64,000 bases of DNA from a virus. The stretch lies in the UHGV virus genome UHGV-0023958, one strand, 5' to 3'. Both the position numbers and the translations under genes were made by a program. Positions 8,317 through 61,899 of this stretch are shown here, one piece after another. Within the stretch, counting starts at the first letter, position 1, and each line of letters opens with the position of its first letter. The notes beneath the pieces are model-generated. The model worked only from the letters and a program-made list of their open reading frames with translations. It had not been told where the DNA came from and ran no database searches.

Positions 8317-8976
8317 ATGATGAAAAAGTCTAAAAGAATTCTTATGATGATTGGTTTTTATTTTCTTTCATTCACTTGGGGGTTCATAATGAGTTTCATT
8401 GGGTTGTTTGTCGTTTTTGGTTCGTGCTTAATTACAAAAACAAAACCGAAGAGATTTGGTTTGTGTACGTATAATATTATTGGTGAGTATTGGGGCGGAT
8501 CTAATTGGGGATTTGGTTTTATCAGCGATAAAAGGTCTCCGAAATCAACTTATTGCCATGAACACGGTCACGGTTTACAAAATATAATTTTTGGACCGCT
8601 TATGCCGTTTATTGTTTGTATACCAAGTGCTGTCAGATATGGACTGTTTGATTGCGATACAGATAGAGATAAAATTAAGTTTTTATCGATTTTCTGTAGT
8701 TTGTTCGCTTTGGCGTTCTTTATTCCGATGATGATTGGTATATTTGCAAGCTGCTTGCCAGTAATTATTGTGTTCGGTATTTTGTTTTTATACGCTATCA
8801 TTTTGATTGTTTGGCTTGTATTTTTCGAAGCACCGAAACACAAAGGAAGACTGCACCCAGATTATGATTCCATCTGGTTTGAAGGGGATGCTACTCGCAG
8901 GGGAACTGCGTTTATGGAAAAGTGTTTTCCAGAAGAAATTTATAAAGTTAGTAGACTACCCATTAGCTTTAGCTGA
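8317..8976 (+). CDS. Polytopic membrane protein with an HExxH (CHEHGHG) zinc-metalloprotease-like motif.
   Basis: Several hydrophobic segments; the HEHGH motif; lies between the two fibre paralogues. Confidence 0.4.
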   Translation: MMKKSKRILMMIGFYFLSFTWGFIMSFIGLFVVFGSCLITKTKPKRFGLCTYNIIGEYWGGSNWGFGFISDKRSPKSTYCHEHGHGLQNIIFGPLMPFIVCIPSAVRYGLFDCDTDRDKIKFLSIFCSLFALAFFIPMMIGIFASCLPVIIVFGILFLYAIILIVWLVFFEAPKHKGRLHPDYDSIWFEGDATRRGTAFMEKCFPEEIYKVSRLPISFS

Positions 8977-9038
8977 TGGGTGATCCACATGAGTAGTTCA
9001 CAAAAAAATAAATATGATTAAAAAAAGAAGGGGGTATT

Positions 9039-9875
9039 ATGTTATATTTAGATTATGCGAAGCCCGTTGAAGGTGGTTATATACTTAACTTTTTCGCTGA
9101 TAAAGTTGAAGATATGGAAGCTATAACTGGCGGAAAAGAATTTGTTACAAAAAACGGCACGAATTACGGCGTTCCCCTTAAAGGTTCTACTGTCGTAATA
9201 ACTGCTCCCGATAAAGAAAAGAAGACGTTTATTCTTGATGAAAATGGCGAATGGAATGAAGGCGGATTAAACCCGAATGAGTTTTACACGAAGGAAGCTG
9301 CTGACGAAAAATTTATGGAAAAGGTAGTTAACATTAACCTCTCCCCTGATACTGCTACACGAGGCACTTTGACAGAAGAATAGTTAGCTACCTTGATGAA
9401 AGACGATAATAATTATATCACTCTTAACAAAGAAATCTATCGGTTAGCAGACAAGCAATACACCACAGAAATTATCTCCTATGTCAATACAGGTGTGGGT
9501 AGTAATATAATTTATATCACTGTTTCTACAAGAGCTTGGACTTTGGTTGTAGGGGAGAGGCCAAGTACGGTTTATAAACACGAGCTTACCCTCGTTGATA
9601 AAGATAATCAACACATAGAGATATCATTGATTAACAATTGGAAGTTCGAATATGACGATCAGAATTTACGTGAGTTGGTGGGTGGTGGCACGTACTCAAC
9701 TGTTGGACGTTCTGATATTAGCTTTGACGGTTCAGAGTTAGGTTTATACAATTTTTTTAGTATAGACGGTGCTACTGTAGATGGTTATGCTTATTATATT
9801 AAAACAGACGGAACAATAGGTATACAAGAGTTAAGTACAGTACGCGTTGATAGTGACTTGGTGACGGACTTTTAA
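9039..9875 (+). CDS. Tail fibre / receptor-binding-like protein, paralogue B, with one in-frame TAG at 9384-9386.
   Basis: Track ORFs 9039-9383 and 9393-9875 share a frame and are separated only by TAG. N-terminus MLYLDYAKPVEGGYILNFFAD...NGTNYGVPL. Confidence 0.55.
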
Positions 9876-10202
9876 CATTTAAACCTCATATCCCGCTGGT
9901 GAAAAAGACGCTACGGTGCATCTGGTGTGATAACTGGCGGAACCGCCACTTTAAGTGATGGTACGAGTGTACCGATAACTATAACTACCGCCGAAGCATA
10001 ATTCGGCATAAACACTTTATCTCCCTTTCCCCCAATTTGAGAGGGGAGGAATAATAAATAAAATTTAGGTTTTATTATACAGCCCAGTTTTTGTTCGGTT
10101 TTCTGTAAAAAAATCGAACACCAATAAGTTTGGGTGTGGCGAGTGAGATACCTCCCGCCCGCCACAACTCAATATAAAAAATAAAAGAGGAGGCAAGAGA
10201 TT

Positions 10203-13200: not shown

Positions 13201-14339
13201 TAACTTTTGATCAGAATAAAGGTATCGAATTTACGACGAGGGTTACAATAGACAGTTATCAATACTCGGCAGAATTTCTAAACGTTGTTATTAATACAGA
13301 TGGCGGAAACACAAAGAACTTGGTTTTGAAACCAGAAGATTTATATATAAGTTCTAATGATTGGCCAGAAGGTTATAAAGTTGGTTTCCCGAATTATGAG
13401 TGCTATAAGATTGGTAATTATGCTATCGGGGAAAATCCGAACGTATATGTTTATGGGAATGTAACAACCGATTTGTTCCCTAATTCTGATTCTTATAATT
13501 CTTGTATTAAATATAATAATTACTATATATCTTATATTCCTTCGAACGTAGTTCCCCTTGGAGCTAATAAACCTTCTATAAATATTCCAAATTCTTGGTA
13601 TTTTATCAATTATGATGAAGAAAATAGTGTTAAAGATATAATAAGTGATAAACCGATAAAGATAAATAAGATGATTTATGCTTTAGATGATCCCGATGGG
13701 CTATAGAACAAAGATGTATTTTATAATTTGCCAATATTTATAAGAAACGATTTATCTTTAAGCGGGAAAACAATAGAAAATTTACCTGATGGAACTAAGG
13801 TTTATAGTCTTTGGATGGATAAAAACGATGAGATAATTATACCAACAATAGTTGCTATAAATGAATCTGCTAATACTTTTTACTATTGTTATAGAAAAGT
13901 CAATAATCATCAAGAGGATATATCAGATAATATCTGGGAAGATACAAAAGAAAACGGAGAAGATAATATTTGGGAAGACGAAATTACAGTAGAAGATACT
14001 CAATCTGACCATTTAAAAAATAAAGATGGCTCGTTGAATACGATTAGAAATCGTTTGTATGGCAAAGTTTTATATTTTTATGTTCAGTGGAGCGGAAAAG
14101 AAAACGACGATATCACATACGGCATTGTTGGAAATGTATCACAAAGAGTAATAGATGTTGATTCTGAATTGTCGTTGACTTCTGTTAATCCAGTTGAGAA
14201 CAGGGTAATTACAACTGCTTTAAATTCAAAATTAGATACAACAACGTTATCTGATTAGAACACATTTGGTATATTTAAATGTTATACAGATAAATTTGGA
14301 ATATTAACTTTTGTTACTGGGGAGGGTGAAAATGGCTAA
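10203..14339 (+). CDS. Large tail / host-specificity protein of about 1378 codons with at least 8 in-frame TAG codons.
   Basis: ORFs 10203-10529, 10950-11339, 11802-12623, 12645-13706 and 13728-14258 are all in frame 0 with only TAG between them. The TAG at 14256 is followed in frame by TAA at 14337-14339, overlapping the next ATG as ATGGCTAA. Confidence 0.55.
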
Positions 14340-15927
14340 TATTAAGATAGGTATAAGTAGCGGTTATAAACCACAAGATTTTGGTGATCCTTCAAGAAAA
14401 TCAAGAGTTTCTTATTTATATGCTTATAACAAAGACGAATCTTCTCCGTCAAATAGAAATTTTCCAGCGATTTTTTCAAAGAAAGCATATAATGATATTA
14501 TGAACGACGAAAATAAAGATTTTTTATTGTTTGCGTTGAACTATACAGCTGAAAAAGTCAACGGTTTGACAATGCCGCTCCCAGATGGAATTGTTTCAGA
14601 AGGATTAAAAACGTTTCCGCAAAGGTCTATTTATAAAAGAGAAGTGTGGAGAGATGATGACAACCAGGTGCATTATGAAAAAATATTACACCCGGTTGTT
14701 TTACAAAACAATGTTTCTCGTGTTATAGACTATAATGTAACAACAAATAGAAATTATGAATATATAATTTATTTGACAGATCAAAGAGGAAGTCAAACTA
14801 TCCAAAGAGAAATACATTTCCCAATAACAACAAAGTGGGATTATTGGTCTATTTCTGAATTACATAGAACAAGCGAATAGAATGTTTATACAACATCCGA
14901 AAATGAAACGTGGTTATTTAAATTTAATGTTGAACCGGGGGAACAACAGCAGAATGTTTCTAAATCGCAACAAGATACGCTTGGTAAATACCCTGCTTTT
15001 TCTTATGGAAAAAAGAATTATACCACAAGTTCTGTTTCTTGTTTGCTTGGCTCCGAAATGCTTCCCTTTGACTTTTTAACAACGAATTATGTTCTTGTAA
15101 GAAACGAAGATGGTAGCGTTTCATGGGGTTTGGCGCAAGATGTCAGTGAGGTATATGGCGGATATACAGAATCTCGTTGGAAGAAACTATTAGATCAATG
15201 CGGAATGAACGAACGTGTTGTTAATATTTTTGACACAAAAATCACATCTAATGACAGTGTTGATATGTTGAATGAGTGGAAGAAATTGTGCAATTCTGGA
15301 AACCCGAAGTTGTATAAAAATTCCAAAGGTCAGTCGTTTATTATACAGATAACCGAATTTTCAAATTCAATTAATGAATCTTGGGATAAACAGCCGATAA
15401 CTATCAATTTTAGTTGGACAGAAATTGCAGATGCAAGCGATGCAAGAATAATACAAACAACCGAATTCACAACCGATACAAGCGGAAGTGTTTCTGGTGG
15501 AGGAGATGAGCCAGTGATGGATTATAATATTCTTTCTAATAAACCACAGATAAACGGTGTTGAGTTGGTTGGAAATAAAACGGATAAAGATTTATATCTG
15601 GAAGCAGAAGGTAATATTAAATCTATTTCTGGAACAAGTCCTTCTGTAAAATTAGACAACAACATCACTTATAATCTTGGTTCGATTAACGGATTAACAA
15701 CAACATTTGGTAGTATTAATGACGAATACTATAAAAATCGTCAGTGTTCACAGGCAGAAATTAACTTTACTGCCGCAAGTAATTTCACATATACACCTCC
15801 AGAAAATACAACAATTATAGGTGGAGATGTTGAGGGTGGAAAACTCAGTGCTAAAAAGGGCACTTCTTACAACATAGGATTTGGATATGTTGATAATGTT
15901 ATGTATGCCGTTTGTGGCATTAGATAA
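14332..15927 (+). CDS. Tail / baseplate-associated protein with one in-frame TAG at 14878-14880.
   Basis: RBS ggggaggg then ATG 14332. ORFs 14311-14880 and 15043-15927 share a frame and are joined across TAG. Confidence 0.5.
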
Positions 15928-15937
15928 AATATAAAAA

Positions 15938-16024
15938 GGAGAGGTAAATATGATTTATAATTCATCTTAGTTTTCTTTACAAGGAAGCGGAGAGGTAATT
16001 TCTATTACCTCTCCTTATTTATTT
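15938..16024 (+). promoter_or_regulatory. Alternative RNA structure. The SD ggagaggtaaat (15938-15949) has a copy ggagaggtaat (15989-15999) that forms an 11-bp hairpin with attacctctcc (16004-16014), loop ttct and a U-rich tail.
   Basis: Perfect 11-bp stem inside the first 22 codons of the 15950 gene. Its 3' arm is complementary to the genuine SD. Confidence 0.35.
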
Positions 16025-17200
16025 GATCAATATTATAATTTTTATTATATAGAAGATTATATTAAAAACAAACACATATAGCCGAGATTTAAAATATATG
16101 TTTTAAATGCCGATGAAACCGAGAGATATGAAATTCCAAATGGAGATATTATCAGCGGTAGTTATTCCGAAAACTATCAAAATGGTCAGAGGAGAACGTT
16201 GTCCTTTCAATTAAATAATAATAATGGAGAATATACGCCGTCAATTAATCATTTTTGGACTGGGCAGAAATTTTCTTTTTATATTGGATTCAATATGAAT
16301 AACGATGAAAATAGTGTTATTTGGTTTAGAAAAGGAATCTATTCTTGCCAAAATCAAAGCGTTGATAATTCATCTGATACGAAAACGGTTAGTATAGAAA
16401 CAGCTGATAAATTTTCTGTTTTGGAAGGGAAAAGCGGAACATTGGAGTATTCTTATACAATTAATGTAGGAGAGGATATTGAAGAAGTTATAAACAACAT
16501 ATTAAACACGGACAATGGTTCTGGTTTTATGTTGGATTCAAAAGGCATTGTTTATCATTCTTTATTTAAAGATAAAAAGGTAATTTCTCAAATATCAGAA
16601 TCTGCTGGCGCAACTTACGGTTCAATTATTTTAAAACTTGCAGAAATGCTTTCTGCAGAAGTTTTTTATAATGTCAACGGTAATTTGACGTTAATTCCGA
16701 AACAAGAAGTTATCAACGATTCCGACAAGCCGATTTTGTTTTCTTTTAATGCAGACAACGGGGATTTGATGACACATAATTACAGTTTTTCTTTCGAAGA
16801 TATTGTAAACAAGGTTATTGTTATCGGTTCAAATGTTAATGGAAGCACGTGTAGAGCGACGGCTGTCAACAACTCCGCAGATTCTCCAATCAGTGTATCA
16901 AGAATTGGCTATAGAACAGGATCAATAATTAATGATTCTTCGATTAATTCAGATTATCTTGCGCAGGAAAGAGCTGATTATGAATTAAGAAAAGTAAGTG
17001 TTGCTAAAACAAGTGTAAGTAACACGGCGTTATTGAATCCTTTAATAGAAGTAAACAATTTAATAGAAATTACCGATAATTTTTACGGTATAGAAAACGA
17101 AAAATTCCTTGTTCAATCGATTTCTTTTTCGTTAGATTATAGCGGAACGATGTCGATTTCAAGTTCAAATATAAACAATCTTTCATTTACGAATAGATAA
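15950..17200 (+). CDS. Tail protein with two in-frame TAG codons (15968-15970 and 16079-16081).
   Basis: Strong RBS aaggagagg then ATG 15950. Frame 2 stays open apart from TAG, reaching track ORF 16199-17200. Confidence 0.5.
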
Positions 17201-17210
17201 GGAGGGACGT

Positions 17211-18902
17211 ATGAATAAGACAGAACAAGCAAATGGCTTTTTAAATATAATACGCTCCATTATCAAAGAGGAACAAGATAAGCGCGACAGGGTTGAAATT
17301 TGTCAAATTGATAGCGTAAATGAAGATGGGACAGTAAATATAAAAATGCTTTCAGATTTTGAAACTGTTAGAATAATTCCAAATATTTCAAATCAATCGA
17401 TATATAGTTTTAAAAATGGAGATTTGGCTATTATTTATATGATTCAAAATCAATTATCGAACGCGTTTATAATTGCTAAATGCGGTCCGACAAATGAAAG
17501 TTTAAGAATATCTTCGTCGGATGGTGATACAACTGGCGGAGGCACTGTTATACAAAATATAACATATCAAAGCGGAACTACTAGCGGCGTAACATCTGTC
17601 AATGGTAAAACGGGCGAGGTTACTATTACTGCATAGGATCTTGGAGCAATTACTGAAATTCCAGATGTAACACAAATACAATCAACAGATATTTCTTCGC
17701 TAGTTTATGATACAACAAATGGTGCCGCTTTTGAAATAAATAACAGTATTATCTTTTCAGATGGAACAAAAAATAACCCACTTTTAAAATTCAATTTGCC
17801 CATTATCGGCATCAATGGTATTAGTATAGATAAATCTAATGGTAAAAATGTTCTGGAAATTTCAGGAAAAGATTTGCAAGATTTAATTAATTCTATATCC
17901 TTGACTAGTGGTACGAATAATGGAACTTTAAAATTAACCGTTGGTACAACTATTGTTGATAATATTAAAGTTACGGGTTTTGATAAAAAGCAAGACCAGC
18001 TTAGCGAGAGCCAATTAAATGCTGTTAATTCTGGAATAACTTCAGAAAAAGTAACCACTTATGATGAATACCAGTCTTAGATTAATTCTAAATACACAAA
18101 ACCCGATGGCGGTATTCCGAAGTCAGATTTGTCTTCGGATGTTCAAAGTTCTTTGGTGAAAGCCGATTCTGCCTTACAAACCCATCAGAAAATTACAACT
18201 GGTAGTGCGAACGGAACGATTGCCGTTGATGGGACTGATGTTTCTGTTAAAGGATTAGGTTCTCTTGCGTACAAAAATTCTTTGACAAAAACAGATGTTG
18301 GACTTGGAAACGTTGATAATACATCGGATGAAGCCAAACCAATTTCTACCGCAACACAAACAGCCTTAGATGGGAAAGTAAATACTACAACAACGGTAAA
18401 CGGTCACGCGTTATCTTCTAATGTTACTATTACACAATCGGATGTCGGTTTGGGTAATGTTATTAACGCAGGGCAAGATCCAACACCAACATCCGATTCT
18501 ATAAATTATGTTACTTCTGGTGGTGTTAAAAGTTATGTTGACAACGGGTTAAACAAAAAAGCGGATTTACTAGTTAATGAATCAACGGTTACTACTGTAT
18601 AGTCTGGCCGCTTGTATGAGTTTACTGATATTCACAATCCATTTAGTTTATCTATCAATATGGATACATTTAAAACATCTAATGATGTTTCGCAGATTTA
18701 TTTCACGGCAGCAGCTAATTTTGATGTTGTCCTTAATGTTTCTTCTGGTGTTAGAATAATCGGAGATGGTGTTAATGCGAGTACCAAAAAAATTTCTTGT
18801 GTTAAAGGCAATTCGTATTATTTTACTTTTGGTTATACAAAAAAAGGTGTTTCTATTGTAAGTAATATTGATGCAAATTGGAGTGAGATAGCAACGGTAT
18901 AA
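17211..18902 (+). CDS. Tail fibre protein with GLGNVDNTSD-type fibre repeats and three in-frame TAG codons.
   Basis: ORFs 17211-17636, 17796-18080, 18129-18602 and 18612-18902 are all in frame 0. Repeats TDVGLGNVDNTSDEAKPIS and SDVGLGNVINAGQ. RBS aaggaggg. Confidence 0.6.
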
Positions 18903-26748: not shown

Positions 26749-26823
26749 TGGGGAATAGCATAACGGTAGTGCGGTGCTCTCTAAAAGCACTCTGTGTCGG
26801 TTCGAGCCCGACTTCCCCCGCCA
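26749..26823 (+). tRNA. Amber suppressor tRNA, anticodon CUA, with Gln-like features U1, G10 and G73.
   Basis: Cloverleaf: acceptor tggggaa/ttccccc; D-stem gcat/gtgc; anticodon stem gtgct/agcac with loop cTCTAaa; T-arm gtcgg-ttcgagc-ccgac; encoded CCA. Confidence 0.75.
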
Positions 26824-41800: not shown

Positions 41801-42092
41801 GAAAATAGACGATAAAATTATGCTTTATGGTCCAGGCGAAATAGGAGATTTGCAGCTCGGATATGCGGTTACAACGCATAAACTCCAAGGAACTGGTTAT
41901 CCTTATGTAATTGCGGTTTGCGACCAGGGTTCTTTTAATCTTTTGAGCAAGGAGCATCTTTACACGGAGATTACGCGTGCTAAAAAGTATTGTACGCTTA
42001 TAGGAACGCCGAAGGCAATTACGACCGCAATCAAAACCACTCGTGTTGTAAAAAAGCAAACTTATCTCGGAGAAATGCTCGCAGCCACTTAA
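38802..42092 (+). CDS. RecD-like SF1 helicase interrupted by an intein.
   Basis: HhH-type N-terminus; split Walker A ANAG|C...HN|CGKTT; C-terminal motif VTTHKLQG. Confidence 0.7.
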   Translation: MQYEIEDADVGFEGYVTKIRFPKAQKDYNGWCAFDFQVDSVFVGEIRKSTIKNGIIHLCGYAPLAKENIRYRVYAKYEISQKYGHTYQVCYMSSIVSLETEEDVRNFLLTILPQKTVENFMEYTKDPIGLIKSGDISEMCNIKGVGFTRAQDIVAKFRGIDDRAEVYAIFTKLGLTKRLADDLIEQYKSADSLMADINKNPYILIEKCDGVGWAKADNLALKMGIAEDSEFRIKAYVNYFLTKIAETEGHTWVTLQNLLSSILGLSKIITKDRAKIILRELVDKEKLHYEEQTKRIGLNKYYRLEKRICDELVRLRDAEVFPVKHIDETIADCEKMVGFEYTQEQKDAIYKIFKNNVFLLTANAGCVDKDTEFFNGEKWKKISDYKSGERVLQYNEDGSASLTKPLMYFKKPCDKLYHFETKYGINQTVCEEHDVLYWKSENVHDSCKVKDIKDKQELYRSGFSGKIKAGFNYSGNGINLSDEEIRVMCAVICDGSFDSSVELKTNSHSYRYCRFHIKKDRKKERIRKLFSDAKIEFKEHNSIMKGYTDFYIKAPMRTKMFDEFWYHCTNKQLQVICDEILYWDGSITKTKNNKEKKKFSTTLKENADFVQFAFTACGYRATIKVDDRKGEKYFTAGKQYVRKSVCYEVFISDNVFIGFGNDSRVCHKKTKIEEVKSEDGYKYCFMVESTMLVLRRNNCIFVTHNCGKTTIMYPVARILRRNGYNFASCALSGKASLNLSETIGEEGKTIHRLLEFNGFTTQFDRDVNNPLEQNVVILDEVSMVGGDLFLHLLRAMKTGTKLIMIGDPGQLESIGLCNLISDIKGSGRIAQAYLTKIFRQAQKSGIITDSLKVYHQEQILPSNGFIGDEVHGELKDFEIISKNTTQDCLNEIVKKFKKFYYEDKIPIDDIIIAVAKRAIGPLSARCVNQIIQNLLELPKERTLKHKYNDQVLYEITFHVGDKVLVTKNNYKAETIEGINYPIFNGNIGTVYDICEDTLLMKIDDKIMLYGPGEIGDLQLGYAVTTHKLQGTGYPYVIAVCDQGSFNLLSKEHLYTEITRAKKYCTLIGTPKAITTAIKTTRVVKKQTYLGEMLAAT
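39897..40916 (+). mobile_element. Intein of 340 aa with a LAGLIDADG-type endonuclease domain (VICDGSF), inserted in the helicase P-loop.
   Basis: Begins with Cys after NAG; ends HN followed by +1 Cys. Excision would restore ANAGCGKTT. Confidence 0.6.
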
Positions 42093-42098
42093 AATTAG

Positions 42099-42127
42099 TT
42101 GACATTGCAGTATTTTTGTGATATAAT
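42099..42127 (+). promoter_or_regulatory. Promoter TTGACA-N17-TGaTATAAT.
   Basis: Consensus. Confidence 0.5.
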
Positions 42128-44773: not shown

Positions 44774-44800
44774 AAAATTTTAAAAACCATTTAAATCTCC

Positions 44801-44829
44801 TTGACTTTATTTTGTGTTTATGATATAAT
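44801..44829 (+). promoter_or_regulatory. Promoter TTGACT-N17-TGaTATAAT.
   Basis: Consensus. Confidence 0.5.
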
Positions 44830-44862
44830 ATACTTACAAAATAAATTTAAGGAGATAAAAAA

Positions 44863-45237: not shown

Positions 45238-45481
45238 TGAAAATGGCATTATGCGCGCGAAAGACGAAAATGAAACACCAATTTTATTTGCAGACAAAAT
45301 CAAAGCATACGCCGTTGTAACGTGTTCTAAGTGCTATAATAGCTGCCGTATTGCGTTTACCGATGTGGCAAAGGCTAATACACGTGCGTTTAAAGTATGC
45401 TGTCCTTGGTGCGAATATGAGAACACAGTGGATTTAAAATATTTCAATGATAAAGCAAAATTTATTTTCGAAAAAGTTTGA
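45176..45481 (+). CDS. Zinc-ribbon protein (CxxC ... CxxC) overlapping the previous gene in another frame.
   Basis: RBS ggagagagg then ATG 45176. Confidence 0.35.
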   Translation: MEKKIVYQQDIFGKEHPYTVDENGIMRAKDENETPILFADKIKAYAVVTCSKCYNSCRIAFTDVAKANTRAFKVCCPWCEYENTVDLKYFNDKAKFIFEKV

Positions 45482-45499
45482 AAAACAGATTAAAATTAG

Positions 45500-45528
45500 T
45501 TGACTTTATTTTAAAAATATGATATAAT
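45500..45528 (+). promoter_or_regulatory. Promoter TTGACT-N17-TGaTATAAT driving the ncRNA / tRNA block.
   Basis: Consensus. Confidence 0.5.
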
Positions 45529-45534
45529 AAGAGT

Positions 45535-46056
45535 ACAAAATTGAGTTAGGTGCTACGAAGCAACACAGAGAAGTAAAACGTTTGAATCGTTAAAAAGCTT
45601 TCTTGAGATGAAGAAGCAGTAGTAAATGGATTTTGATAAACAGCCTAAATCAATGGTTAATTACCGAGTGCATTCGTAGCGCGGTGGCGCAACAACTCCG
45701 AAGTTGTAAAAATGTCGGGGAATACTTAATGGTTGCATACCGCCTGATTATGGATATGCTGACAGGTCAGTGAAAGTACTGCAAAAACTCCCGTTCGGAT
45801 AAATGTGTTGGGAGGACGTGGTTGATTATCCTACACCACACAAGTCGGATTAAGTCTGGCATCTATGTGTAGCCCCTTTAAAGGTGGCTTACGGAAAGAT
45901 CCTTAGTAATAAGGACTGCTGCTAACATAGTAATGTGTTAGTAAACAAAAAACCAGGTAGCTCGAATGGTATTACTTTCGCTGATATTGTTTTATTAGAT
46001 ATTCGGTTCGTAAAGTTTTTTTTCGAAGTACAAGAAGAATAGAGCTATCTATTTAT
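45535..46056 (+). ncRNA. Candidate structured non-coding RNA of about 520 nt between the promoter and tRNA-Tyr.
   Basis: Stops in every frame including TAA and TGA; higher GC than flanks; directly upstream of a tRNA. Confidence 0.25.
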
Positions 46057-46143
46057 GCGCAGGTATTCCGTTAAGGAGACGGGACGGACTGTAAATCCGT
46101 TGCCGTAAGGCTCTAGTGGGTTCGATTCCCTCACTGCGCACCA
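46057..46143 (+). tRNA. tRNA-Tyr (GTA), type II with a long variable arm.
   Basis: Acceptor gcgcagg/actgcgc; anticodon stem acgga/tccgt with loop cTGTAaa; variable stem gcc-gtaa-ggc; T-loop ttcgatt; CCA. Confidence 0.55.
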
Positions 46144-46822
46144 ATATGGTCGGATGGTGTAATCTGGTAGCACATCAGCCTTTGCGGTTGGGGGCACACG
46201 TTCAAATCGTGCATGGCCTACATTTGTTCGCTATCTACAGGCGGCTAATAAATAGAGTAAAGTGGGTATTGAGGAAAGTTGCGAATAGTGTAGAAAATAA
46301 GCAATTTACTGCAAACTATGTCCTCATAAAATGGTCTGTGATATTCCAGTGGCTGCGCAAAATATCAAATCATCTCAATGTAGAATTTGGCAATTGTTGC
46401 AACGATTTGTCAAAAGAGACTCAAGTGAAAGCAGAAATCCCTCAAAATTAAATCTACGAGGAATATGATCACCTTGGGCGCGAAATCCTGCGTAAATGTA
46501 GCAAGGGCAGGTAAAAAAGAGTCGAAGAGATGAGAGAGCGTTTCGCTGCTTTAATGCGAGATGTATAAGTTCTGTATTGTCGAGAGTCCTGCGAGAGTGG
46601 AAACAATTAGTATTTTATGTTTATTTGATTTATTTATTTTTTTTTAGATTATTATTCATTTTTTACTGATTACTATTACCTATACCCACAATACAGAAAA
46701 ACTCTATAATTGCACAGCGGATTATAGATAAGGCTGCCGTAGCATGTAACGGAAATCAATGCAGTTACGTAAAGGACTGACAGATTACTGAGAATCAGAA
46801 AATCTCAAAGCTGTATAAATAT

Positions 46823-46899
46823 TGCTTCTTAGCTCAGCTGGTTAGAGCGCGTGACTGTTAATCACGATGTCCAGAGTTCGAATCTCTGAGAAGCAGCCA
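46823..46899 (+). tRNA. tRNA-Asn (GTT).
   Basis: Canonical cloverleaf tgcttct-ta-gctc-agctggtta-gagc-g-cgtga-cTGTTaa-tcacg...cagag-ttcgaat-ctctg-agaagca-g-cca. Confidence 0.85.
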
Positions 46900-47363
46900 T
46901 TAAATTGAATAGCATGTAATGGGAACATATCCGGAGTAGAATACATCTGATTAAAATAACAAAATCTTCGTTAGTTAGCCTCCCCGACGTCTGCTGATAT
47001 GGCTGATGGAGTCCTTGCTATTCTTGATAATTGAGGAGTGATAAACCTGACAAAGTTGAAATGATATATACGATGTCCGTACTGAAACGTATCAGACAAA
47101 TATCAAGACGTTATAGCTCTACCGACACGTCAGATCGGGTAATGGGTAATAAGAGCTTACTTATAGTATCTTAGAGTAATTTAGTACCTTAAATGAAATA
47201 AGTAAATGTAATTCAATTTAAAAGTATTTCTTTGATTTAAGGGTTAGGTAGGAGTGGCTACGCAGACCAACTCAAGAGTGTCTTGGCGTAAAGTAGATGA
47301 AAAGAAAGAAATTGGTTGAATTAAATTTAATGATTAACCAAAGTCCATTGGTTATAAATACGT

Positions 47364-47437
47364 GCGATATTAGTGTAGTGGTAACACAATTGATTTCCAA
47401 TCAATTATCATCAGTTCAAATCTGATATATTGCTCCA
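47364..47437 (+). tRNA. tRNA-Gly (TCC).
   Basis: gcgatat-ta-gtgt-agtggta-acac-a-attga-ttTCCaa-tcaat-tatc-atcag-ttcaaat-ctgat-atattgc-t-cca. Confidence 0.8.
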
Positions 47438-47550
47438 GCACCCTACGGTAGGTATACATACGCGTAGTCCGAAGTCATTGGCGGATAGAGTAAGTAGAAG
47501 CTATAGATTCTAAGCACCAGCATCGCTCTCGACACTAACGGATGCTACCC

Positions 47551-47627
47551 GGAAGTTTAGTTCAGTTGGTTAGAACGCTACCTTGACATGGTAGAGGTCA
47601 TAGGTTCAAGTCCTATAATTTCCACCA
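47551..47627 (+). tRNA. tRNA-Val (GAC).
   Basis: ggaagtt-ta-gttc-agttggtta-gaac-g-ctacc-ttGACat-ggtag-aggtc-atagg-ttcaagt-cctat-aatttcc-a-cca. Confidence 0.8.
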
Positions 47628-47949
47628 AAGGCCGAACATTGCCTTGGGCGTATCCAAAAATTGTTTCCGCATTAGTTGCGATAGTACAAGGTGCGATATC
47701 TATCAAAGATACGCTGGTAGAATATCGAGAAGTCCGACGAACACCTGACGTTCGAGGTGGCATCAGTTAATTGCCATTATAGGAGATTGTTTTGCAAGAC
47801 GATTTTCCAATTAACATGGAATATAATAGGTATTATATAGCGTTTAAGCTTTATAAGGAACGAAGCTTTCGGTGAAGTCGTTAAAATCGACAGACCTATA
47901 TTTTGAAGTATTATATTCTGAACCGCAAAAATAATAAAATGGAGTTCTT

Positions 47950-48174
47950 ATGAAAATTTACTTACGCACTTTAAAGATGTAAATGATTTCGCAAAAATTA
48001 CTGAAAATCTAGATTGCGAAGTTGTTGTAGAAAGCGAAGATAGAAAGTATCGAGTAGATGGAAAAAGTATTCTTGGTATTTATTCCCTCAATCTTTCAAT
48101 GCCGCTGATTCTTTCTGTTTCAGAAACAGAAGAAGATAAATTTTTCAAATACCGCTGGTTTGAAGAGGAAGATT
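47950..48174 (+). pseudogene. Small gene interrupted after 9 codons. ATG 47950 with RBS tggag reads MKIYLRTLKM then stops. A -1 shift at T_TTA_AAG (47970-47976) would give about 75 aa with weak HPr-like similarity.
   Basis: The -1 frame is open 47922-48174; a canonical X_XXY_YYZ heptamer lies directly before the 0-frame stop. Confidence 0.3.
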
Positions 48175-48248
48175 AAGCCGAATCAAACCTTTCTTTCTGC
48201 CAAAAGGAAAAGCGTATTTATATAATCCAAAGAGTAGAGGTGATTATT

Positions 48249-51163: not shown

Positions 51164-52348
51164 ATGAAATTACAACTATTAGATTTTATTAAACAGAACA
51201 AAGAGAACTGGAAAGATGTTTTGCAGAAGCCACCTTATTCTCTTATTGTAAAAGAAGACGATGATTATATTTTGTTAAAATATAATCAGTTGGAATCTGA
51301 TTTATCAAATTCAATTGTTCAGGAATGCCGTGGAATAATTTTACGTAAATCAGATTTAAAGGTTGTTTGCTTTCCTTTTACAAAATTCTTCAATTATCAC
51401 GAACCGAACGCTGCTAATATAGATTGGGATGGTGCACGCGTTCTTGATAAGATCGACGGGAGTTTGATGAAGCTTTGGTTTGACAATGGGTATTGGCATT
51501 GGTCCACAAACGGAAATATCGATGCTGATAAAACAGAATTCGCAGTAAACGACTTATCGCAGATGTATTGTCCTTGTAAAACTTTTGGAGAATTAATTCG
51601 TACGGCTGTAAATTATAAAGATTTAGATTTTAATAATCTAAATAAAAATTTTACGTATATGTTCGAACTGGTATCTCCGTATACTAAAATTGTAATTCCG
51701 TATTCGGAAACAAAACTTTATCATCTGGCCACTCGTGATAACACTACGTTTGAAGAACTCGAAACGGACATCATTGTTGAGAAACCGAAATCTTATGATA
51801 TTTCGACCGTTGATGATTGTGTGCTTGCTGCCGAAAAACTTTCTTCCGATTATGAAGGTTTTGTTGTTGTAGATAAGAATTATCATCGTATTAAAATCAA
51901 AAACCCAAAATATCTTATGATGCACAGAATGGCAAGTAATAATTCTTTGAGTATCAAAAATATTCTTGAGATGATTAAAATTAATGAATGTAGTGAATTT
52001 CTTTCTTACTTTCCAGAATATACGAACGCATTTAAAATTGTAGATCAAATTCTTAAAAAGTATTATTTTGAAATGAGCAAAGAATACTACGAGTTTAAAG
52101 AACAATCTGTGTTTTTATCACGGAGAAAAATTGCAGAAAAGATAAATAGTAATGCTAAATGGAAAGATTATCTTTTTGGAGCAATATATAAAAACAAAAC
52201 AGATGAAGAAAAGTATTTGTTCGAAATGAAGGGCGATAGACTTTTAAACCTTGTTCGCGAAGATTATAAAAAAATGATGGAGAAAAAAGATGCGGATACC
52301 TATTTTATACATAATGTGTGGACTGCCAGCGTCGGGGAAAACAACTAA
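51164..52348 (+). CDS. RNA ligase, T4 Rnl1-like.
   Basis: Nucleotidyltransferase motif I KIDGSL, resembling T4 Rnl1 KEDGSL. Confidence 0.55.
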   Translation: MKLQLLDFIKQNKENWKDVLQKPPYSLIVKEDDDYILLKYNQLESDLSNSIVQECRGIILRKSDLKVVCFPFTKFFNYHEPNAANIDWDGARVLDKIDGSLMKLWFDNGYWHWSTNGNIDADKTEFAVNDLSQMYCPCKTFGELIRTAVNYKDLDFNNLNKNFTYMFELVSPYTKIVIPYSETKLYHLATRDNTTFEELETDIIVEKPKSYDISTVDDCVLAAEKLSSDYEGFVVVDKNYHRIKIKNPKYLMMHRMASNNSLSIKNILEMIKINECSEFLSYFPEYTNAFKIVDQILKKYYFEMSKEYYEFKEQSVFLSRRKIAEKINSNAKWKDYLFGAIYKNKTDEEKYLFEMKGDRLLNLVREDYKKMMEKKDADTYFIHNVWTASVGENN

Positions 52349-53279
52349 GGCTAAAGAAATTGTTGCAGAAGAAGGTGCGGAATACGTATCGTCTGATGAA
52401 ATCAGAAAAGAATTATATGGCGATGAAAGTTGTCAGTCCGATAATCAAAAAGTATTTGAACATTATTACAAAAGAATGAATCAATATCTTTCCGAAGGAA
52501 AAGATGTTGTTATTGATTCAACAAATGTTACTTTGAAATCGAGAAAAAGAATTCTTTCAGAATGTAAAGTAGATTGTATAAAATTGGTTTATATAATCAA
52601 CACACCTATTGAAATTTGCTATGAAAATGATTTAAAAAGAGAAAGACATGTCGGAAAAGAAGTTATTGATAAATTCTGGAAGAATTTTCAGTGTCCGCAA
52701 AGTTTTGAAGGTTTTGATTCAATAGTGATAATTCAAAATAATCATGAAAAAAATTTTGACAAAGATTTTTTTGAAGAAACTATTAAAAAAATGAATGATT
52801 TTGATCAAAAAAATCCACATCATAAATTTACTTTGGGAGAACACTGCCTGATAACGAAAAAATTATTAGAAAAGATGATAAATAACACAGACAGTTTTTA
52901 TGAAAAAAGATTGTTTTTTACGGAAAAAGTTAAAAAAAGTGTTTGTTATGCTGCTCTGATTCATGATGTCGGTAAAATGTTTTTTCAATCTTTTGATAAA
53001 GATGGTGTTGCCCATTATTATAATCATGCAAACATTGGAACATATTATCTTGTTTCGCACATGAGTGAATTTTTAGATTCGATTGACAAGGATTGTTTTC
53101 AATATGTTTCATATATTTTATTTTTAGTAAATTATCACATGCTTGCACACGAAATTCATACCGAGAAAGCTATAAATAAATATAAAAATCTTTTTGGCGA
53201 AGATTTGTTTAATTTATTAATGAAGTTTCAAAAGTGTGATAGTTTGGCTTCTGGAACGGCTGGAGAAATTGATTTATGA
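52290..53279 (+). CDS. Polynucleotide kinase (P-loop GLPASGKTT) fused to an HD phosphohydrolase domain.
   Basis: Walker A at the N-terminus; LIHDVGK HD motif. Confidence 0.55.
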   Translation: MRIPILYIMCGLPASGKTTKAKEIVAEEGAEYVSSDEIRKELYGDESCQSDNQKVFEHYYKRMNQYLSEGKDVVIDSTNVTLKSRKRILSECKVDCIKLVYIINTPIEICYENDLKRERHVGKEVIDKFWKNFQCPQSFEGFDSIVIIQNNHEKNFDKDFFEETIKKMNDFDQKNPHHKFTLGEHCLITKKLLEKMINNTDSFYEKRLFFTEKVKKSVCYAALIHDVGKMFFQSFDKDGVAHYYNHANIGTYYLVSHMSEFLDSIDKDCFQYVSYILFLVNYHMLAHEIHTEKAINKYKNLFGEDLFNLLMKFQKCDSLASGTAGEIDL

Positions 53280-53745: not shown

Positions 53746-53795
53746 AAGTCAAGTGCGTAAAATCGCTTGACTTTTTTTTATTCGTTTGATATAAT
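53746..53795 (+). promoter_or_regulatory. Terminator hairpin aagtcaag...cttgactt plus a T8 tract. Its 3' arm is the -35 of a TTGACT-N17-TATAAT promoter.
   Basis: Seen in the sequence. Confidence 0.5.
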
Positions 53796-53825
53796 ATACG
53801 TACAAAGATAGCGAGGTGAGAAATT

Positions 53826-57209: not shown

Positions 57210-57259
57210 AAAGTCAACTATGAAAATTAGTTGACTTTTTATTTTTTTTATAGTATAAT
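57210..57259 (+). promoter_or_regulatory. 11-bp perfect hairpin aaagtcaacta / tagttgacttt with loop tgaaaat and a T-tract. The -35 TTGACT sits in the 3' arm, with TTGACT-N17-TATAAT.
   Basis: Seen in the sequence. Confidence 0.55.
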
Positions 57260-58170: not shown

Positions 58171-58877
58171 ATAGATATTTTGATTATGAATTTGATGGAG
58201 ATACTGAATCTCAAGCAGACGAAATTGTGCACGAAGCAAAAGATAAGCTCGTAGATTTGATTTATGAAAATGTAAAATCAGAAATTGAAGAAGATAAAAA
58301 AAATTATGTAAGGGCCAAAGAAAGAGCCGATGAGCTGCAGAAAGAGTGTTATGAAAAAAGAGAAAAAATCAATGCTCTTGAAATTGAATTAAAGAAAGTA
58401 AAAGAAGAGCTTGAAAGAAGTGATAAGTTAATTCCCAAAACACCTTTTGCACTTGGTGATGAGGTTTGGATTCCTTATAGAAAGTATAGTGATAAAGGTG
58501 AGGTGAAATGCCCTATGTGTAATGGCGAAGGGTATATTACCACACCAACCTATATTTATGGAACGCTTAAATGTATCTGCCCACATTGTAATAATGAGTG
58601 GGGAAAAACAAAAGCGGAATATGATAAATACTCCGTGGAGCGTAGATATATTAAATCAATTAATATTTTTACAGATAAAGCAAAAGAGACCAGATTTGAC
58701 TACGGAACCATCGAAGATAAAAAGAATCTTGATGTCAAAGACTATCATTATGTAACTACCGTAACACATGTTTATGCAACAAGAGAAGAGGCGTTGGCGA
58801 AAGCGCAGGAGTGGGAAAACGAAAGCAAAAAGAAAGCAGAAGAAAAGATTTTTGGAGAAAATAAGTCAACTACCTAA
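58161..58877 (+). CDS. Coiled-coil / zinc-ribbon protein with CPMCNGEG and CPHCNNE.
   Basis: ORF track. Confidence 0.4.
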   Translation: MELNRYFDYEFDGDTESQADEIVHEAKDKLVDLIYENVKSEIEEDKKNYVRAKERADELQKECYEKREKINALEIELKKVKEELERSDKLIPKTPFALGDEVWIPYRKYSDKGEVKCPMCNGEGYITTPTYIYGTLKCICPHCNNEWGKTKAEYDKYSVERRYIKSINIFTDKAKETRFDYGTIEDKKNLDVKDYHYVTTVTHVYATREEALAKAQEWENESKKKAEEKIFGENKSTT

Positions 58878-59099
58878 TCCCTGAGTGGATGTGGGCTTTG
58901 TTCCCATTAGTTGATCAGACTAAGCGTTAAGCTACGTTATCAAAGAATATACAGGCACCGTAGGATGTATTCTCCAGTCTTACGCTCTGCGGTATGTGAT
59001 TAAACAGTTCTGATGGGTAGGAACAGTGTTGCATACGAAAACCTTTGAATAACATTGTCGTGGAGTAACCACTCTAACATATAGGAGGCTATAAAAGCA
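58878..59099 (+). ncRNA. Candidate omega-RNA scaffold for the downstream IscB.
   Basis: About 220 nt with no ORF and higher GC than flanks, immediately 5' of iscB; several local stems such as cgtagga...tcttacg. Confidence 0.4.
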
Positions 59100-60329
59100 A
59101 TGGTATATGTATTAAATAAACAAGGTGAGCCAATAATGCCTTGTAAAGAAGCAAAAGCAAGGAAATTGTTAAAACAAAACAAAGCAAAAATAGCAAAGTA
59201 TGAGCTATTTACAATTCAATTACTATTCGATTGTGAAAATCAAACGCAAGAAGTAAATCTCGGAATTGATGCAGGGAGCAAACATATAGGTGTTTCTGCA
59301 ACCACAGAAAAACAAGTTTTATACGAAGCTAATGTTGAGTTGAGAAATGATATTGTTGACAAATTATCTTCTCGTCGTGAAGCTCGCAGGACTCGTAGGA
59401 ATAGATTGAGATATAGACCTGCAAGGTTTAATAATAGAATTAAATCAAAACATAAAGGCTGGTTAGCACCAAGTGTTGAACAAAAGATAAATACGCATAT
59501 TCAAGTTATAAAACACTTATACGAGATTTTACCGATAACAAAACTTGTTATTGAAACTGCTCAATTTGATATTCAAAAAATCAACAATCCTGAAATATCT
59601 GGAGCAGAATATCAACAAGGTGAGCAATTAGGATTTTGGAATGTAAGAGAATATGTTTTATTTCGCGATAATCACGAATGTCAATATTGTCACGGGAAGT
59701 CAAAAGATGTTGTATTAAATGTGCACCATATTAAAAGTCGAAAAATAGGCGGCAATGCACCAAATAACTTGATCACTTTATGTGAAACTTGCCATAAAGC
59801 TTATCATAGTGGCGAAATTAAACTAAATCTCAAACGTGGTAAGAGCTATCGAGATGCAACATTTATGTGGGTTATGCGTAAAACATTATTGAATAGGTTG
59901 CGTAAATTATATACAAATGTTTACGAAACGTATGGTTATATAACTAAAAATGCTCGTAGCGAGAATAATTTACCAAAAGAACATTACATAGATGCTCGGT
60001 GTATAAGCGGCAATTCAAAAGCAAAACCGTTAGATTATTACATTTATCAGAAATGTGTTAGAAAACAGAACAGGCAAATTCATAAAAACAATTTCTTAAA
60101 AGGTAGATACAAAAAGAATAACCAACTAAATGGAAATGTTTTTGGATTTGAATTATTCGATACTGTAAAATATAAGAATAAACAATATTTTGTTTTTGGT
60201 AAACGCAAGTCTGGGTTTTTAGATGTAAGAAATCTAGACGGCGAAAAGGTAAACAATGGTTCAATAAGTTATAAAAAACTTAAAAGAATTAGATATAATT
60301 CAACAAAATTAACGGAAAGGAGGCGGTAA
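59100..60329 (+). CDS. iscB: IscB-like RNA-guided nuclease, OMEGA class, with PLMP, RuvC-I, arginine-rich bridge helix, RuvC-II, HNH and RuvC-III.
   Basis: GEPIMPC...FTIQLLFD (PLMP); LGIDAGSKHIGVS; RREARRTRRNRLRYRPARF; LVIETAQFD; CQYCHG...NVHHIKSR...CETCHKAYH; EHYIDA. RBS aggagg. Confidence 0.75.
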   Translation: MVYVLNKQGEPIMPCKEAKARKLLKQNKAKIAKYELFTIQLLFDCENQTQEVNLGIDAGSKHIGVSATTEKQVLYEANVELRNDIVDKLSSRREARRTRRNRLRYRPARFNNRIKSKHKGWLAPSVEQKINTHIQVIKHLYEILPITKLVIETAQFDIQKINNPEISGAEYQQGEQLGFWNVREYVLFRDNHECQYCHGKSKDVVLNVHHIKSRKIGGNAPNNLITLCETCHKAYHSGEIKLNLKRGKSYRDATFMWVMRKTLLNRLRKLYTNVYETYGYITKNARSENNLPKEHYIDARCISGNSKAKPLDYYIYQKCVRKQNRQIHKNNFLKGRYKKNNQLNGNVFGFELFDTVKYKNKQYFVFGKRKSGFLDVRNLDGEKVNNGSISYKKLKRIRYNSTKLTERRR

Positions 60330-61116: not shown

Positions 61117-61899
61117 ATGGGAAAAACTAATAAAATGCCTGGACTTGGCGATAGAATGAAAGATTATGAAAATGTAAATAGGTTTTATTTAACAAGAAGA
61201 ATGCCATTAATTATAAGAATTGACGGCCGTGCTTTTCATACTTTTTGTAGAGGATTTAAGAAGCCTTACGATAGAATATTTGCAGAATCAATGCAAGCTA
61301 CCGCGCTTAATTTATGTAAAAATATTGAAGGTTGCAAATTAGCTTACACTCAATCTGATGAAATTTCTTTACTTCTTACCGATTATGATGAATTAAATAC
61401 GCAGGCTTGGTTTGATAAAAATTTGCAAAAAATAGTTAGTATTAGTGCGTCTCTTGCAACTCTTTATTTTAACACATCATTTAAAGATTTATCTGAAAAA
61501 TGGTTTGAAAGATATTATGAAGCTTGGAACTATACGGAAGAAGATAGCAAATATTATTGGACTTTAGGAAGAGCAGAATTTACTGCAACATTTGATTCAA
61601 GAGCTTTTTGTTTACCCAAAGAAGAGGTTGCAAATTACTATATTTGGCGACAGAAAGATGCAACCAGAAATTCTATAAATTCTCTTGCTCAAGCTAATTT
61701 TTCTCACAAATCGCTTCAAGGATTAAATGTAAATCAGGTACAAGACAAACTTGTAAATGAAAAAGGAATTAATTGGAACGATCAATTGACTGAGTTTAAA
61801 AGAGGAATTTGCTGTGTAAAAACAGAAGAAGGTTGGAAAATAGATAAAGAAATTCCCGTATTTACTGAAGATAGAAATTACATTGAGAGGTTTATTTAA
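61117..61899 (+). CDS. Thg1-like 3'-5' nucleotidyltransferase, tRNA-His guanylyltransferase family.
   Basis: MKDYENVNRFYLTRRMPLIIRIDGRAFHTF at the N-terminus; ANYYIWRQKDATRNSINSLAQ. Confidence 0.55.
   Translation: MGKTNKMPGLGDRMKDYENVNRFYLTRRMPLIIRIDGRAFHTFCRGFKKPYDRIFAESMQATALNLCKNIEGCKLAYTQSDEISLLLTDYDELNTQAWFDKNLQKIVSISASLATLYFNTSFKDLSEKWFERYYEAWNYTEEDSKYYWTLGRAEFTATFDSRAFCLPKEEVANYYIWRQKDATRNSINSLAQANFSHKSLQGLNVNQVQDKLVNEKGINWNDQLTEFKRGICCVKTEEGWKIDKEIPVFTEDRNYIERFI

Follow-up and report, generated by a model that had tools for sequence, protein, structure and literature searches.

Clusters of tRNA genes in phage genomes are commonly interpreted as consisting of tRNAs alone and as serving codon supply or anti-defence. 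In phage T4, the species 1 and species 2 RNAs (rnaC and rnaD) are freed from a shared precursor by the enzymes that process the tRNAs, and have no assigned function. Other structured RNAs with which a phage tRNA array may be compared include the bacterial Y RNA YrlA (RF02553), which belongs to the RNAs bound by Ro60/TROVE proteins, and the HK022 put and Bacillus subtilis EAR elements, which act on the polymerase. GOLLD and ROOL (RF01998 and RF03087) each consist of one RNA of 500-800 nt, which assembles into a multimeric cage (PMC12286853). Here we report the analysis of a tRNA array in the UHGV virus genome UHGV-0023958, of which the whole stretch of 64,000 nt is referred to as the window. 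The array occupies a block at positions 45482-47949, which is non-coding and contains, besides four tRNA genes, constrained blocks, several covarying helices, and modules that behave as independent cassettes. Its first folded element, named L1, belongs to a widespread RNA family that, in the tRNA arrays of phages, is restricted to the strand of the tRNAs. We propose, with moderate confidence, that this tRNA operon is transcribed as one precursor, from which the modules are released as small RNAs, with L1 acting in trans.

The block separates the stop codon of a 120-codon open reading frame (ORF; position 45481) from the next gene, which starts at 47950, by 2468 nt. It is the largest gap of the window, the second largest being 327 nt, and by a crude gene call about 95% of the rest is coding. 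An ORF-poor stretch of about 2.5 kb had been pointed out in a preliminary description made from the sequence alone, and it withstood every search for genes, including one with TAG read as a sense codon, in which no credible gene appeared and the extra frames only overlapped tRNAs. The longest ORF of the block (111 amino acids, 46116-46451) overlaps a tRNA-like element and is lost in relatives. Read-through ORF maps of the block for TAG, TGA, and TAA revealed no hidden gene, and none of the 27 ORFs of at least 25 amino acids in the block combines a ribosome-binding site (RBS) with conservation in relatives. Two of the conserved blocks described below, A1 and B1, contain 1-nt indels, which rule out coding for both. 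TAG-recoded protein genes, the outcome that the preliminary description had set against its own proposal, are thus excluded by the read-through maps, the indels, and the loss of ORFs in relatives. The raised GC content mentioned there is real and modest: 0.38 in the block, 0.365 without its tRNAs, and 0.33 in the window. More than 80% of the cluster is non-tRNA sequence, and the block has no repeats, iterons, arrays resembling clustered regularly interspaced short palindromic repeats, or diversity-generating retroelement template, nor any similarity to other parts of the window.

The array opens with two features:

45500-45528, + strand: predicted sigma-70-type promoter TTGACT-17-TGnTATAAT, with 11 of 12 consensus positions and an extended -10 TG (motif scan).
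45539-45656, + strand: L1-family RNA, the single copy in the window (covariance model R1, 87.9 bits, E 6e-22).

The consensus promoter recognized in the preliminary description is identical or nearly so in all of the first 11 relatives, and its distance to the GG of the L1 box is fixed at 20 nt. Predicted from sequence, it has a spacing of 17 nt, within the 16-18 nt of the sigma-70 type, and a conserved position, and would place the start of transcription near 45535. No terminator-like site was found on the + strand between 44500 and 48594, the first one being located at 48595.

Comparison of the leaders revealed two invariant boxes, AGGUGCUACGAAGC and GCWGUAGU(U)AAAUGG-N9-AACAGCCU, within a closed domain that makes up the first 115 nt of the predicted transcript. 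In the window, the domain is closed by a helix in which AUUGAGUUAGG (45541-45551) pairs with CCUAAAUCAAU (45644-45654); the 5' box reads AGGUGCUACGAAGC, the 3' box reads GCAGUAGUAAAUGG-N9-AACAGCCU, and the variable central domain between them carries a T-arm-like hairpin, ACG-UUUGAAU-CGU. The family as a whole is defined by the 5' box AGGUGCUACGA, the 3' box GUAGU(U)AAAUGG-N9-AACAGCCU, the helices P1 and P2, and the variable insert. This insert is fully exchanged even among close relatives, with box-to-box distances of 38-151 nt, and hairpin loops of the UUUGA type, which resemble tRNA T-loops, occur in 12 of 43 central domains against 3.9 expected. The core of about 85 nt includes about 35 near-invariant unpaired nucleotides.

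The distribution of L1 was determined with the pattern GTAGTN{0,1}AAATGGN{7,11}AACAGCCT, which matched 81 stretches on about 75 IMG/VR contigs of up to 412 kb, where only a few matches were estimated to arise by chance; in nearly all of them the 5' box lies 60-150 nt upstream. Applied to genomes of bacteria and archaea (596 Gb), the same pattern gave 40 matches, which is about the chance level, and the approximately 16 real ones all came from contigs of gut or rumen metagenome-assembled genomes (MAGs); 18 clear L1 copies were recognized in 16 such contigs. The covariance model R1, built from 47 representatives, identified 94 copies in 74 other IMG/VR loci. In total, about 110 copies were detected on roughly a hundred contigs of large phages from gut and rumen, which are uncultivated and differ in their predicted hosts.

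Comparative evidence for the L1 structure is strong. In its helices, 94.1% of the cells are paired compared to 82.7% after shuffling, and 71 cells carry double changes compared to 29. The covariation score of 0.273 (0.087 in shuffled alignments) was reached by none of 500 shuffles, and slid controls gave 0.04-0.082. Among the 47 representatives, 6 of the 13 pairs carry double changes, and two G-U pairs are invariant or nearly so (U-G in 47 of 47, G-U in 46 of 47). The 3' loop displays non-Watson-Crick covariation (G/G 59, A/A 13), which points to tertiary structure. An alternative hairpin in the 3' box (GCUGU/ACAGC) was rejected, as it is present in a single subfamily and shows no covariation. 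The signal that the preliminary description had sought by comparison of related phages is strong for L1, and compensatory changes were also found in the modules A2, C, M2, and M5h.

The association of L1 with tRNAs is strand-specific. The 76 L1 loci (710 kb) contain 523 tRNA genes, and in all 78 copies with a tRNA in the locus L1 lies on the strand of the nearest tRNA, at a median distance of about 100 nt. Of 92 copies, 24 end at most 30 nt upstream of the 5' end of the next tRNA, and several begin 2-10 nt after a CCA; the window copy precedes tRNA-Tyr, which shares its strand, by 412 nt, and one relative has a second L1 copy before tRNA-Trp. A -10 box lies 10-20 nt ahead of L1 in the window clade as well as in several unrelated phages. 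The locus L068 (9635-9824) shows a stand-alone arrangement, in which the promoter TTGAAA-17-TATAAT is followed by an L1 RNA of 104 nt and then immediately by a perfect TTGACA-17-TATAAT promoter for the next gene; this 13.9-kb locus has no tRNA. In L054, two L1 copies stand in tandem without an intervening tRNA. Another stand-alone unit was observed in L055 (about 460-660). A T-box-like specifier, or a discriminator logic of the UGGN type, connecting L1 to the downstream tRNA was considered for the tRNA-adjacent copies and rejected, since no correlation was seen by eye. The 70 nt upstream of L1 contain a recurrent element, GGCUAAUUCGGCGAA...(A/G)ACGCCGAGCUAA, in L046, L048, L062, L085, L088, L101, and L102; as it is found in several unrelated contigs, it probably represents a further RNA module family.

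No protein is a constant neighbor of L1 across the 76 loci. The most frequent neighbor, a protein of about 500 amino acids with DUF2828 and DUF7788 domains, is encoded on the same strand 1-4 kb from L1 in 11 of the 76 loci (L051, L057, L060, L061, L070, L074, L084, L099, L100, L111, and L114), and is a possible protein partner of the RNA. DUF2828 has been described as a TROVE-like domain. A tblastn search of the 64-kb window gave no match to the DUF2828 protein, and the DUF2828+DUF7788 protein has no sequence match in the PDB.

L1 has no counterpart in Rfam 15, and 38-mers of its core have no match in 50,697 GenBank phage records; it is thus probably a family that was never studied, although the bulk phage-RNA catalogue PMC10690425 could list it. 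The preliminary description had named GOLLD, ROOL, HEARO, transfer-messenger RNA (tmRNA), and group I/II introns as candidates for the block. None of them was detected there by cmscan of the whole window against Rfam 15 at the gathering score, and ARAGORN found no tmRNA; all of these families are excluded, since the block has no Rfam match other than tRNAs, and a HEARO match is found only at 58865-59072. Relaxing the threshold to E<=10 for positions 45300-48100 produced nothing besides tRNAs and sub-threshold noise, three further L1 copies had no Rfam match either, and blastn of the block against the 50,697 GenBank phage records returned tRNA matches only. The proposal had been said to fail if the block lacked both Rfam matches and conservation; the former are indeed lacking, but the conservation is strong.

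To describe this conservation, we used 11 related loci collected via the gene upstream of the array, and further ones found via DNA patterns and in an NCBI MAG; members of the window clade include IMGVR_UViG_3300045988_171998 and the contig JAHXDP010000073 of GCA_019971535.1. The 120-amino acid protein encoded by the upstream gene belongs to a narrow family, in which all matches are at least 73% identical. Besides the promoter and L1, the following features of the array are referred to below:

45657-45921, + strand: M2, variable leader modules, a hairpin chain whose last member is the conserved GGAAAGAUCCUUAGUAAUAAGGACUGC (45893-45919); variably present in relatives.
45922-46056, + strand: M3, leader of tRNA-Tyr; moves as a unit among relatives.
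46057-46143, + strand: tRNA-Tyr(GUA) with a long variable arm (ARAGORN; Rfam RF00005, 30.9 bits, threshold 29).
46148-46219, + strand: degenerate tRNA-like element, "Gln UUG" of ARAGORN (Rfam tRNA, 24 bits, gathering score 29).
46220-46364, + strand: M4; travels with the tRNA-like element.
46365-46535, + strand: A1, a domain of about 165 nt closed by UCAUCUC/GAGAUGA; the most constrained non-tRNA element.
46536-46695, + strand: AT-rich insertion with a T-run, flanked by CUGUAUUGU...ACAAUACAG; absent from 7 of 12 arrays.
46696-46822, + strand: A2, structured leader of tRNA-Asn; present in more distant phages too.
46823-46899, + strand: tRNA-Asn(GUU) (ARAGORN; Rfam, 68.8 bits); the most constant array tRNA of the clade.
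46900-47363, + strand: M5; as a whole module only in the window, L010, L044, L064 (91%), and L059 (74%); the two percentages refer to 46897-47334.
About 47256-47296 (listed as 47234-47302), + strand: M5h, the hairpin GGCUACGCAGAC-CAACUCAAGAGU-GUCUUGGCGUAAAGUAG within M5.
47364-47437, + strand: tRNA-Gly(UCC) (ARAGORN; Rfam, 68.2 bits).
47438-47490, + strand: C, the two-hairpin trailer ACCCUACGGUAGGUAUACAUACGCGUAGUCCGAAGUCAUUGGCGGAUAGAG; always directly after a tRNA 3' CCA.
47551-47627, + strand: tRNA-Val(GAC) (ARAGORN; Rfam, 71.7 bits).
47628-47790, + strand: B1, a conserved hairpin series after the last tRNA; 90-98% identity across the clade.
47791-47949, + strand: B2, weakly constrained leader of the next gene; 75% identity in L010, near neutral.

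In the four most diverged relatives, 70-79% of the third codon positions in four flanking genes agree with the window. In the same relatives, the identity amounts to about 95% for A1, 96-98% for C, 90-96% for B1, and 89-93% for A2, as compared with 75% for B2. A1, C, B1, and A2 are thus conserved far above the synonymous rate, a pattern that indicates purifying selection on much of the folded non-tRNA remainder of the array. The ten fully delimited arrays (the window and nine relatives) range from 1331 to 2596 nt, and across 20-odd related phages blocks are present, absent, or swapped at sharp junctions, frequently at tRNA ends. As judged from these alignments, the array is a mosaic of independently moving modules of about 50-170 nt. 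The preliminary description had expected large structured non-coding RNAs among the tRNAs; conserved structured RNAs are there, but they are modules of this modest size. It had also mentioned many local stems. The fold z-scores of the four spacers against shuffled sequences are, in order, -2.7, -0.8, +0.7, and -2.0. Thermodynamics thus supports the local stems weakly, and the support for structure comes from the comparison with relatives.

Among individual modules, A2 is 81-85% identical in four more distant phages (L059, L064, L065, and L073) and is invariably located 5' of a tRNA or of an L1 copy; 5 of its 26 predicted pairs have compensatory changes, and its hairpin 2 occurs in the variants CCGU/ACGG, CGGC/GCCG, and CAAC/GUUG. 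The trailer C, 90-98% identical across the clade, is also found in L059, L064, L073, and L090, with compensatory changes from A-U to G-C in three sequences and from U-A to C-G in one. In M2, 6 of the 44 pairs predicted for 45722-45922 show compensatory changes (six sequences including the more distant L077), the segment 45730-45868 recurs with 78% identity in one more distant phage, and the leader 45535-46056 as a whole accounts for the z-score of -2.7. The hairpin M5h was found in about 18 IMG/VR contigs with the compensatory replacements UACGC/GCGUA to UAUGC/GCAUA and AGAC/GUCU to AAAC/GUUU; M5 as a whole has the z-score of +0.7 and adjoins tRNA-Gly in the window and tRNA-Trp in L010 and L044. 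M3 (45922-46058) recurs with 91% identity in L045, a phage that differs in other respects, and is partially present in L064, with no ORF kept, while M4 together with 46145-46219 occurs only in L003, L006, L009, L034, and L042. A1 is present in every clade member with 94-98% identity, and all of its 36 predicted pairs are kept in 19 sequences. In B1, nearly all of 48 predicted pairs are kept, and the changes are mostly one-sided. Beyond the close clade, neither A1 nor B1 was found; a 19-mer of A1 searched in IMG/VR and metagenomes gave the clade and chance matches. B2 has a promoter-like site at 47887-47914 (10 of 12 positions) and the RBS of the gene at 47950; a candidate ORF of 27 amino acids with an RBS in B2 was rejected, being broken in 14 of 14 distinct homologues.

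The coordinates of the four tRNAs in the preliminary description proved exact by ARAGORN and Rfam. Some of these genes are exchanged among relatives: tRNA-Tyr is missing from L003, L006, and L009, the place of tRNA-Gly is taken by tRNA-Trp(CCA) in L010 and L044, and the tRNA-Val position holds Val(UAC) or Ala(UGC). The ORF-poor spacer given as 46144-46822 is non-coding as stated, but it begins with the tRNA-like element 46148-46219, which had been missed. In an alignment of six copies, the D- and T-arms of this element are canonical and invariant, the acceptor stem is weak, and the anticodon loop contains indels. It occurs in L003 (7008-7078), L006 (6916-6990), and L009 (6919-6992), and the copies in L006 and L009 were reported by ARAGORN as "???" with 2-nt anticodons. 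Because of these indels and the score of 24 bits, we did not class the element as a tRNA; it may represent a pseudogene, or else a tRNA mimic that takes no part in decoding.

The T-rich run suggested earlier as the terminator of a first unit (46620-46650) does exist, within the 160-nt AT-rich insertion. We rejected it as a terminator or unit boundary, as it has no hairpin and the insertion is missing in 7 of 12 related arrays. A different insertion was observed at the exact A1/A2 junction (46535/46696 of the window) in L002 (about 7250-7540) and L011 (about 7025-7245); it contains a T-arm and a fragment similar to the acceptor 3' strand or 3' half of a tRNA (GGGTTCGACTCCCTCGGTTACG). Since the window and these two loci carry different insertions there, the junction is an insertion hot spot.

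These data can be assembled into the following scheme. The strong sigma-70 promoter would drive one protein-free precursor RNA, in which at least six folded modules under purifying selection are interspersed with four tRNAs and a tRNA-like element. The array is treated as a single unit because it has one consensus promoter, no terminator before 48595, and all features on the + strand. Host RNase P, acting at the tRNA 5' ends, and RNase Z or exonucleases, acting at the 3' ends, would excise the tRNAs, and by analogy with the T4 species 1 and 2 RNAs this excision would free the flanking modules as discrete RNAs of about 50-170 nt. At least the L1-family RNA would then work in trans as a stable small RNA, as suggested by the stand-alone gene in L068 and the tandem copies; the lack of any constantly neighboring protein family was counted in the same direction. 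The near-invariant unpaired nucleotides of L1 suggest that it binds a conserved partner, which may be a protein or else a tRNA, and L1 may serve as a tRNA mimic or scaffold tied to the tRNA supply or repair of the phage. A1, A2, C, B1, and M5h may be further small RNAs, or cis-acting leaders and trailers that aid folding and processing of the neighboring tRNAs.

Several points weigh against this scheme. The transcription, processing, and accumulation of every module are predictions, and the L1 partner is putative. The z-scores are unremarkable for two of the four spacers (-0.8 and +0.7). A1 and B1, the most conserved clade-specific blocks, are nearly devoid of covariation, and their structures are compatible with the data but putative; for A1, shuffled alignments reach the observed score in 489 of 500 trials, because there is too little sequence variation for a significant signal. 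The position of L1 directly behind the promoter in the window clade suits a cis-acting leader equally well, and a few L1 copies precede protein genes, not tRNAs.

The main rival to release and action in trans is accordingly a role of the modules purely in cis, as folding insulators, processing guides, 5' stabilizers, or processive antitermination elements that have no life after cleavage. We regard it as a serious possibility, though a doubtful one. It would account for L1 at the extreme 5' end of the operon, 10-20 nt past the -10 box in the window clade and several unrelated phages, for the constant placement of C after a tRNA CCA and of A2 before a tRNA or an L1 copy, for the L1 copies that are leaders of protein genes, and for the lack of a predicted terminator within the array. 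It fits poorly with the stand-alone L1 of L068, which is immediately followed by the next promoter, and with the tandem L1-L1 arrangement of L054 that has no tRNA in between. Moreover, the near-invariant unpaired nucleotides and the G/G-A/A covariation exceed the needs of an insulator hairpin, and the arrays of many relatives manage without individual modules.

A more specific proposal, which we advance tentatively, is that L1 represents a new functional class: either a catalytic or tRNA-elbow-binding organizer of array processing, or a Y-RNA-like scaffold working with DUF2828/vWA proteins. In the latter variant, the scaffold would serve tRNA quality control or counter-defence. If true, the tRNA arrays of gut and rumen phages would be modular "RNA operons" that trade L1, M5h, A2, C, and tRNAs.

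That the L1 core itself helps to cut the array, as a new self-cleaving ribozyme or a tRNA-binding RNA, appears improbable. Features expected of such RNAs are present: conserved internal-loop sequence beside a freely variable peripheral domain, several copies per genome, a distribution rich in phages and metagenomes, a position flush with tRNA ends, and T-loop-like pentads (U-N-N-R-A) in the 3' loop together with the enriched UUUGA-type loops. No known ribozyme model matches L1, however, nor can a cleavage site be deduced; RNase P and RNase Z already account for tRNA release, and the T-loop signature carries little information.

A role at the DNA level, with the block as a replication origin or a set of recombination sites that mobilize tRNA cassettes and the hairpins as DNA structures, is somewhat less probable still. 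The adjacent replication genes (Pol III alpha, RecD2-like helicase, and PhoH), the AT-rich stretch inside the block, and the exchange of cassettes at precise junctions could be taken in its favor, but L1 shares its strand with the nearest tRNA without exception (78 to 0), and the invariant G-U pairs of L1 would become C-A mismatches on the opposite strand. Iterons and repeats are absent from the block, its AT-rich piece is dispensable, and no recombinase is a constant neighbor.

We consider it very unlikely that the spacers are decayed tRNA remnants with neutral filler, or hidden recoded genes. The degenerate tRNA-like element, the tRNA-half-like fragment inserted in relatives, the near-neutral behavior of B2 and the AT-rich insertion, and the TAG recoding of this phage all speak for such an origin. 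Against it stand the conservation of A1, C, B1, and A2 far over the synonymous rate, the compensatory changes, the lack of any match of the spacers to the tRNA model even at E<=10, and the fact that no ORF survives in relatives, where 1-nt indels are tolerated. This explanation is largely refuted for the conserved blocks and stands only for 46536-46695, 47491-47550, and 47791-47949.

Finally, it is scarcely credible that the block holds a divergent relative of one of the established large RNAs (GOLLD, ROOL, tmRNA, RNase P RNA, group I/II introns, or Y RNA). GOLLD and ROOL do occur near phage tRNAs (PMC12286853), and YrlA gives a weak match of 17.5 bits at 46100-46200. That match, however, falls far short of its gathering score (69) and covers tRNA-Tyr and the tRNA-like element rather than L1, the block and the three further L1 copies yielded only tRNAs and noise at E<=10, and the array consists of independent cassettes instead of one big RNA.

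The genomic context of the array is that of a large phage. All credible genes of the window lie on the + strand. In-frame TAG codons are abundant across the first 18.9 kb, which comprise the virion genes (2-18902); the ORF 2-7525 (2507 codons) contains 33 of them and the ORF 10185-14339 contains 8, whereas the genes between 19 kb and 45 kb have hardly any. A suppressor tRNA with the anticodon CUA (labelled "Pyl" by ARAGORN) is located at 26749-26823. TAG stop-codon recoding is thus restricted to the late genes. Genes for NrdD, Pol III alpha, a RecD2-like helicase, ClpP, thioredoxin reductase, and PhoH occupy the central part of the window; the block adjoins replication genes, and the relatives are IMG/VR contigs of 94-148 kb. 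From the recoded virion genes, the suppressor tRNA, the gene content, and the size of these relatives, the window derives from a large, TAG-recoded phage with sigma-70-type promoters. Sequences similar to the array promoter recur before other gene blocks (44783-44842, 53758-53806, 57220-57245, and 42089-42106), which points to a class of phage promoters that have in common an extended consensus rich in A/T.

Further observations concern genes downstream of the array. RNA repair or editing genes are located at 51164-53279 and 61117-61899; this set comprises a T4 Rnl1-like RNA ligase, a P-loop kinase fused to an HD phosphohydrolase, and a Thg1-like 3'-5' nucleotidyltransferase, and suggests that the phage defends or repairs its own tRNAs. 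The HEARO (omega RNA) match at 58865-59072, outside the block, scores 121.7 bits and is followed by an IscB-like ORF with HNH-type motifs (59100-60329), the two forming an RNA-guided nuclease element within the phage. The first gene 3' of the array (47950-48176) is frameshifted in the window alone. The site reads ACTTTTAAAG in nine relatives, ACTTTCAAGG in L010, and ACTTTAAAG in the window, and the 75-codon ORF is intact in ten relatives. A programmed -1 frameshift at T_TTA_AAG was rejected, given the relatives with one extra T and an intact frame; the window has a 1-nt deletion or a homopolymer assembly error.

L1 lends itself to experiment, with a compact core, highly conserved unpaired regions, and a freely variable arm. 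If its partner were found, it could explain the investment of large phages in long non-coding arrays, and could add an RNA mimic, scaffold, or ribozyme to the tRNA arms race between phages and hosts. The shuffling of cassettes at tRNA borders also provides an annotation marker for regions that gene callers leave blank.

Compared with the described systems, L1 at the head of the array resembles HK022 put and B. subtilis EAR in being a structured RNA of about 100 nt placed after a promoter or in a long operon, but it also stands alone before a new promoter or in tandem, and has no sequence resemblance to either. With Y RNAs, it shares 5' and 3' ends that pair in a helix with a conserved asymmetric loop, a variable module that often carries a T-arm-like hairpin, and, in 11 of 76 loci, a nearby DUF2828+DUF7788 gene. 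The conserved boxes differ, YrlA does not match L1, and no obvious Ro-like gene was seen in the 64-kb window, where no search was aimed at TROVE. GOLLD and ROOL are likewise structured non-coding RNAs without an assigned function, often encoded by phages beside tRNA genes; in the array described here, the modules are instead independent of one another and 50-170 nt long, and it matches neither of the two models. The closest parallel is offered by the T4 species 1 and 2 RNAs, which, as is proposed for the modules of the window, are small stable non-coding RNAs (139 and 119 nt) on the tRNA strand and flush with phage tRNA genes, and T4 has RNA ligase genes near its tRNA cluster, as the window phage has its Rnl1-like, kinase-HD, and Thg1-like genes. 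The two systems are not homologous: model R1, run with filters off on T4 positions 69000-75000, gave a best score of 9.8 bits, located off rnaC and rnaD. They also differ in architecture, since T4 has two RNAs at the end of its cluster, whereas in the window array at least six module types are interspersed between the tRNAs and shuffled among relatives.

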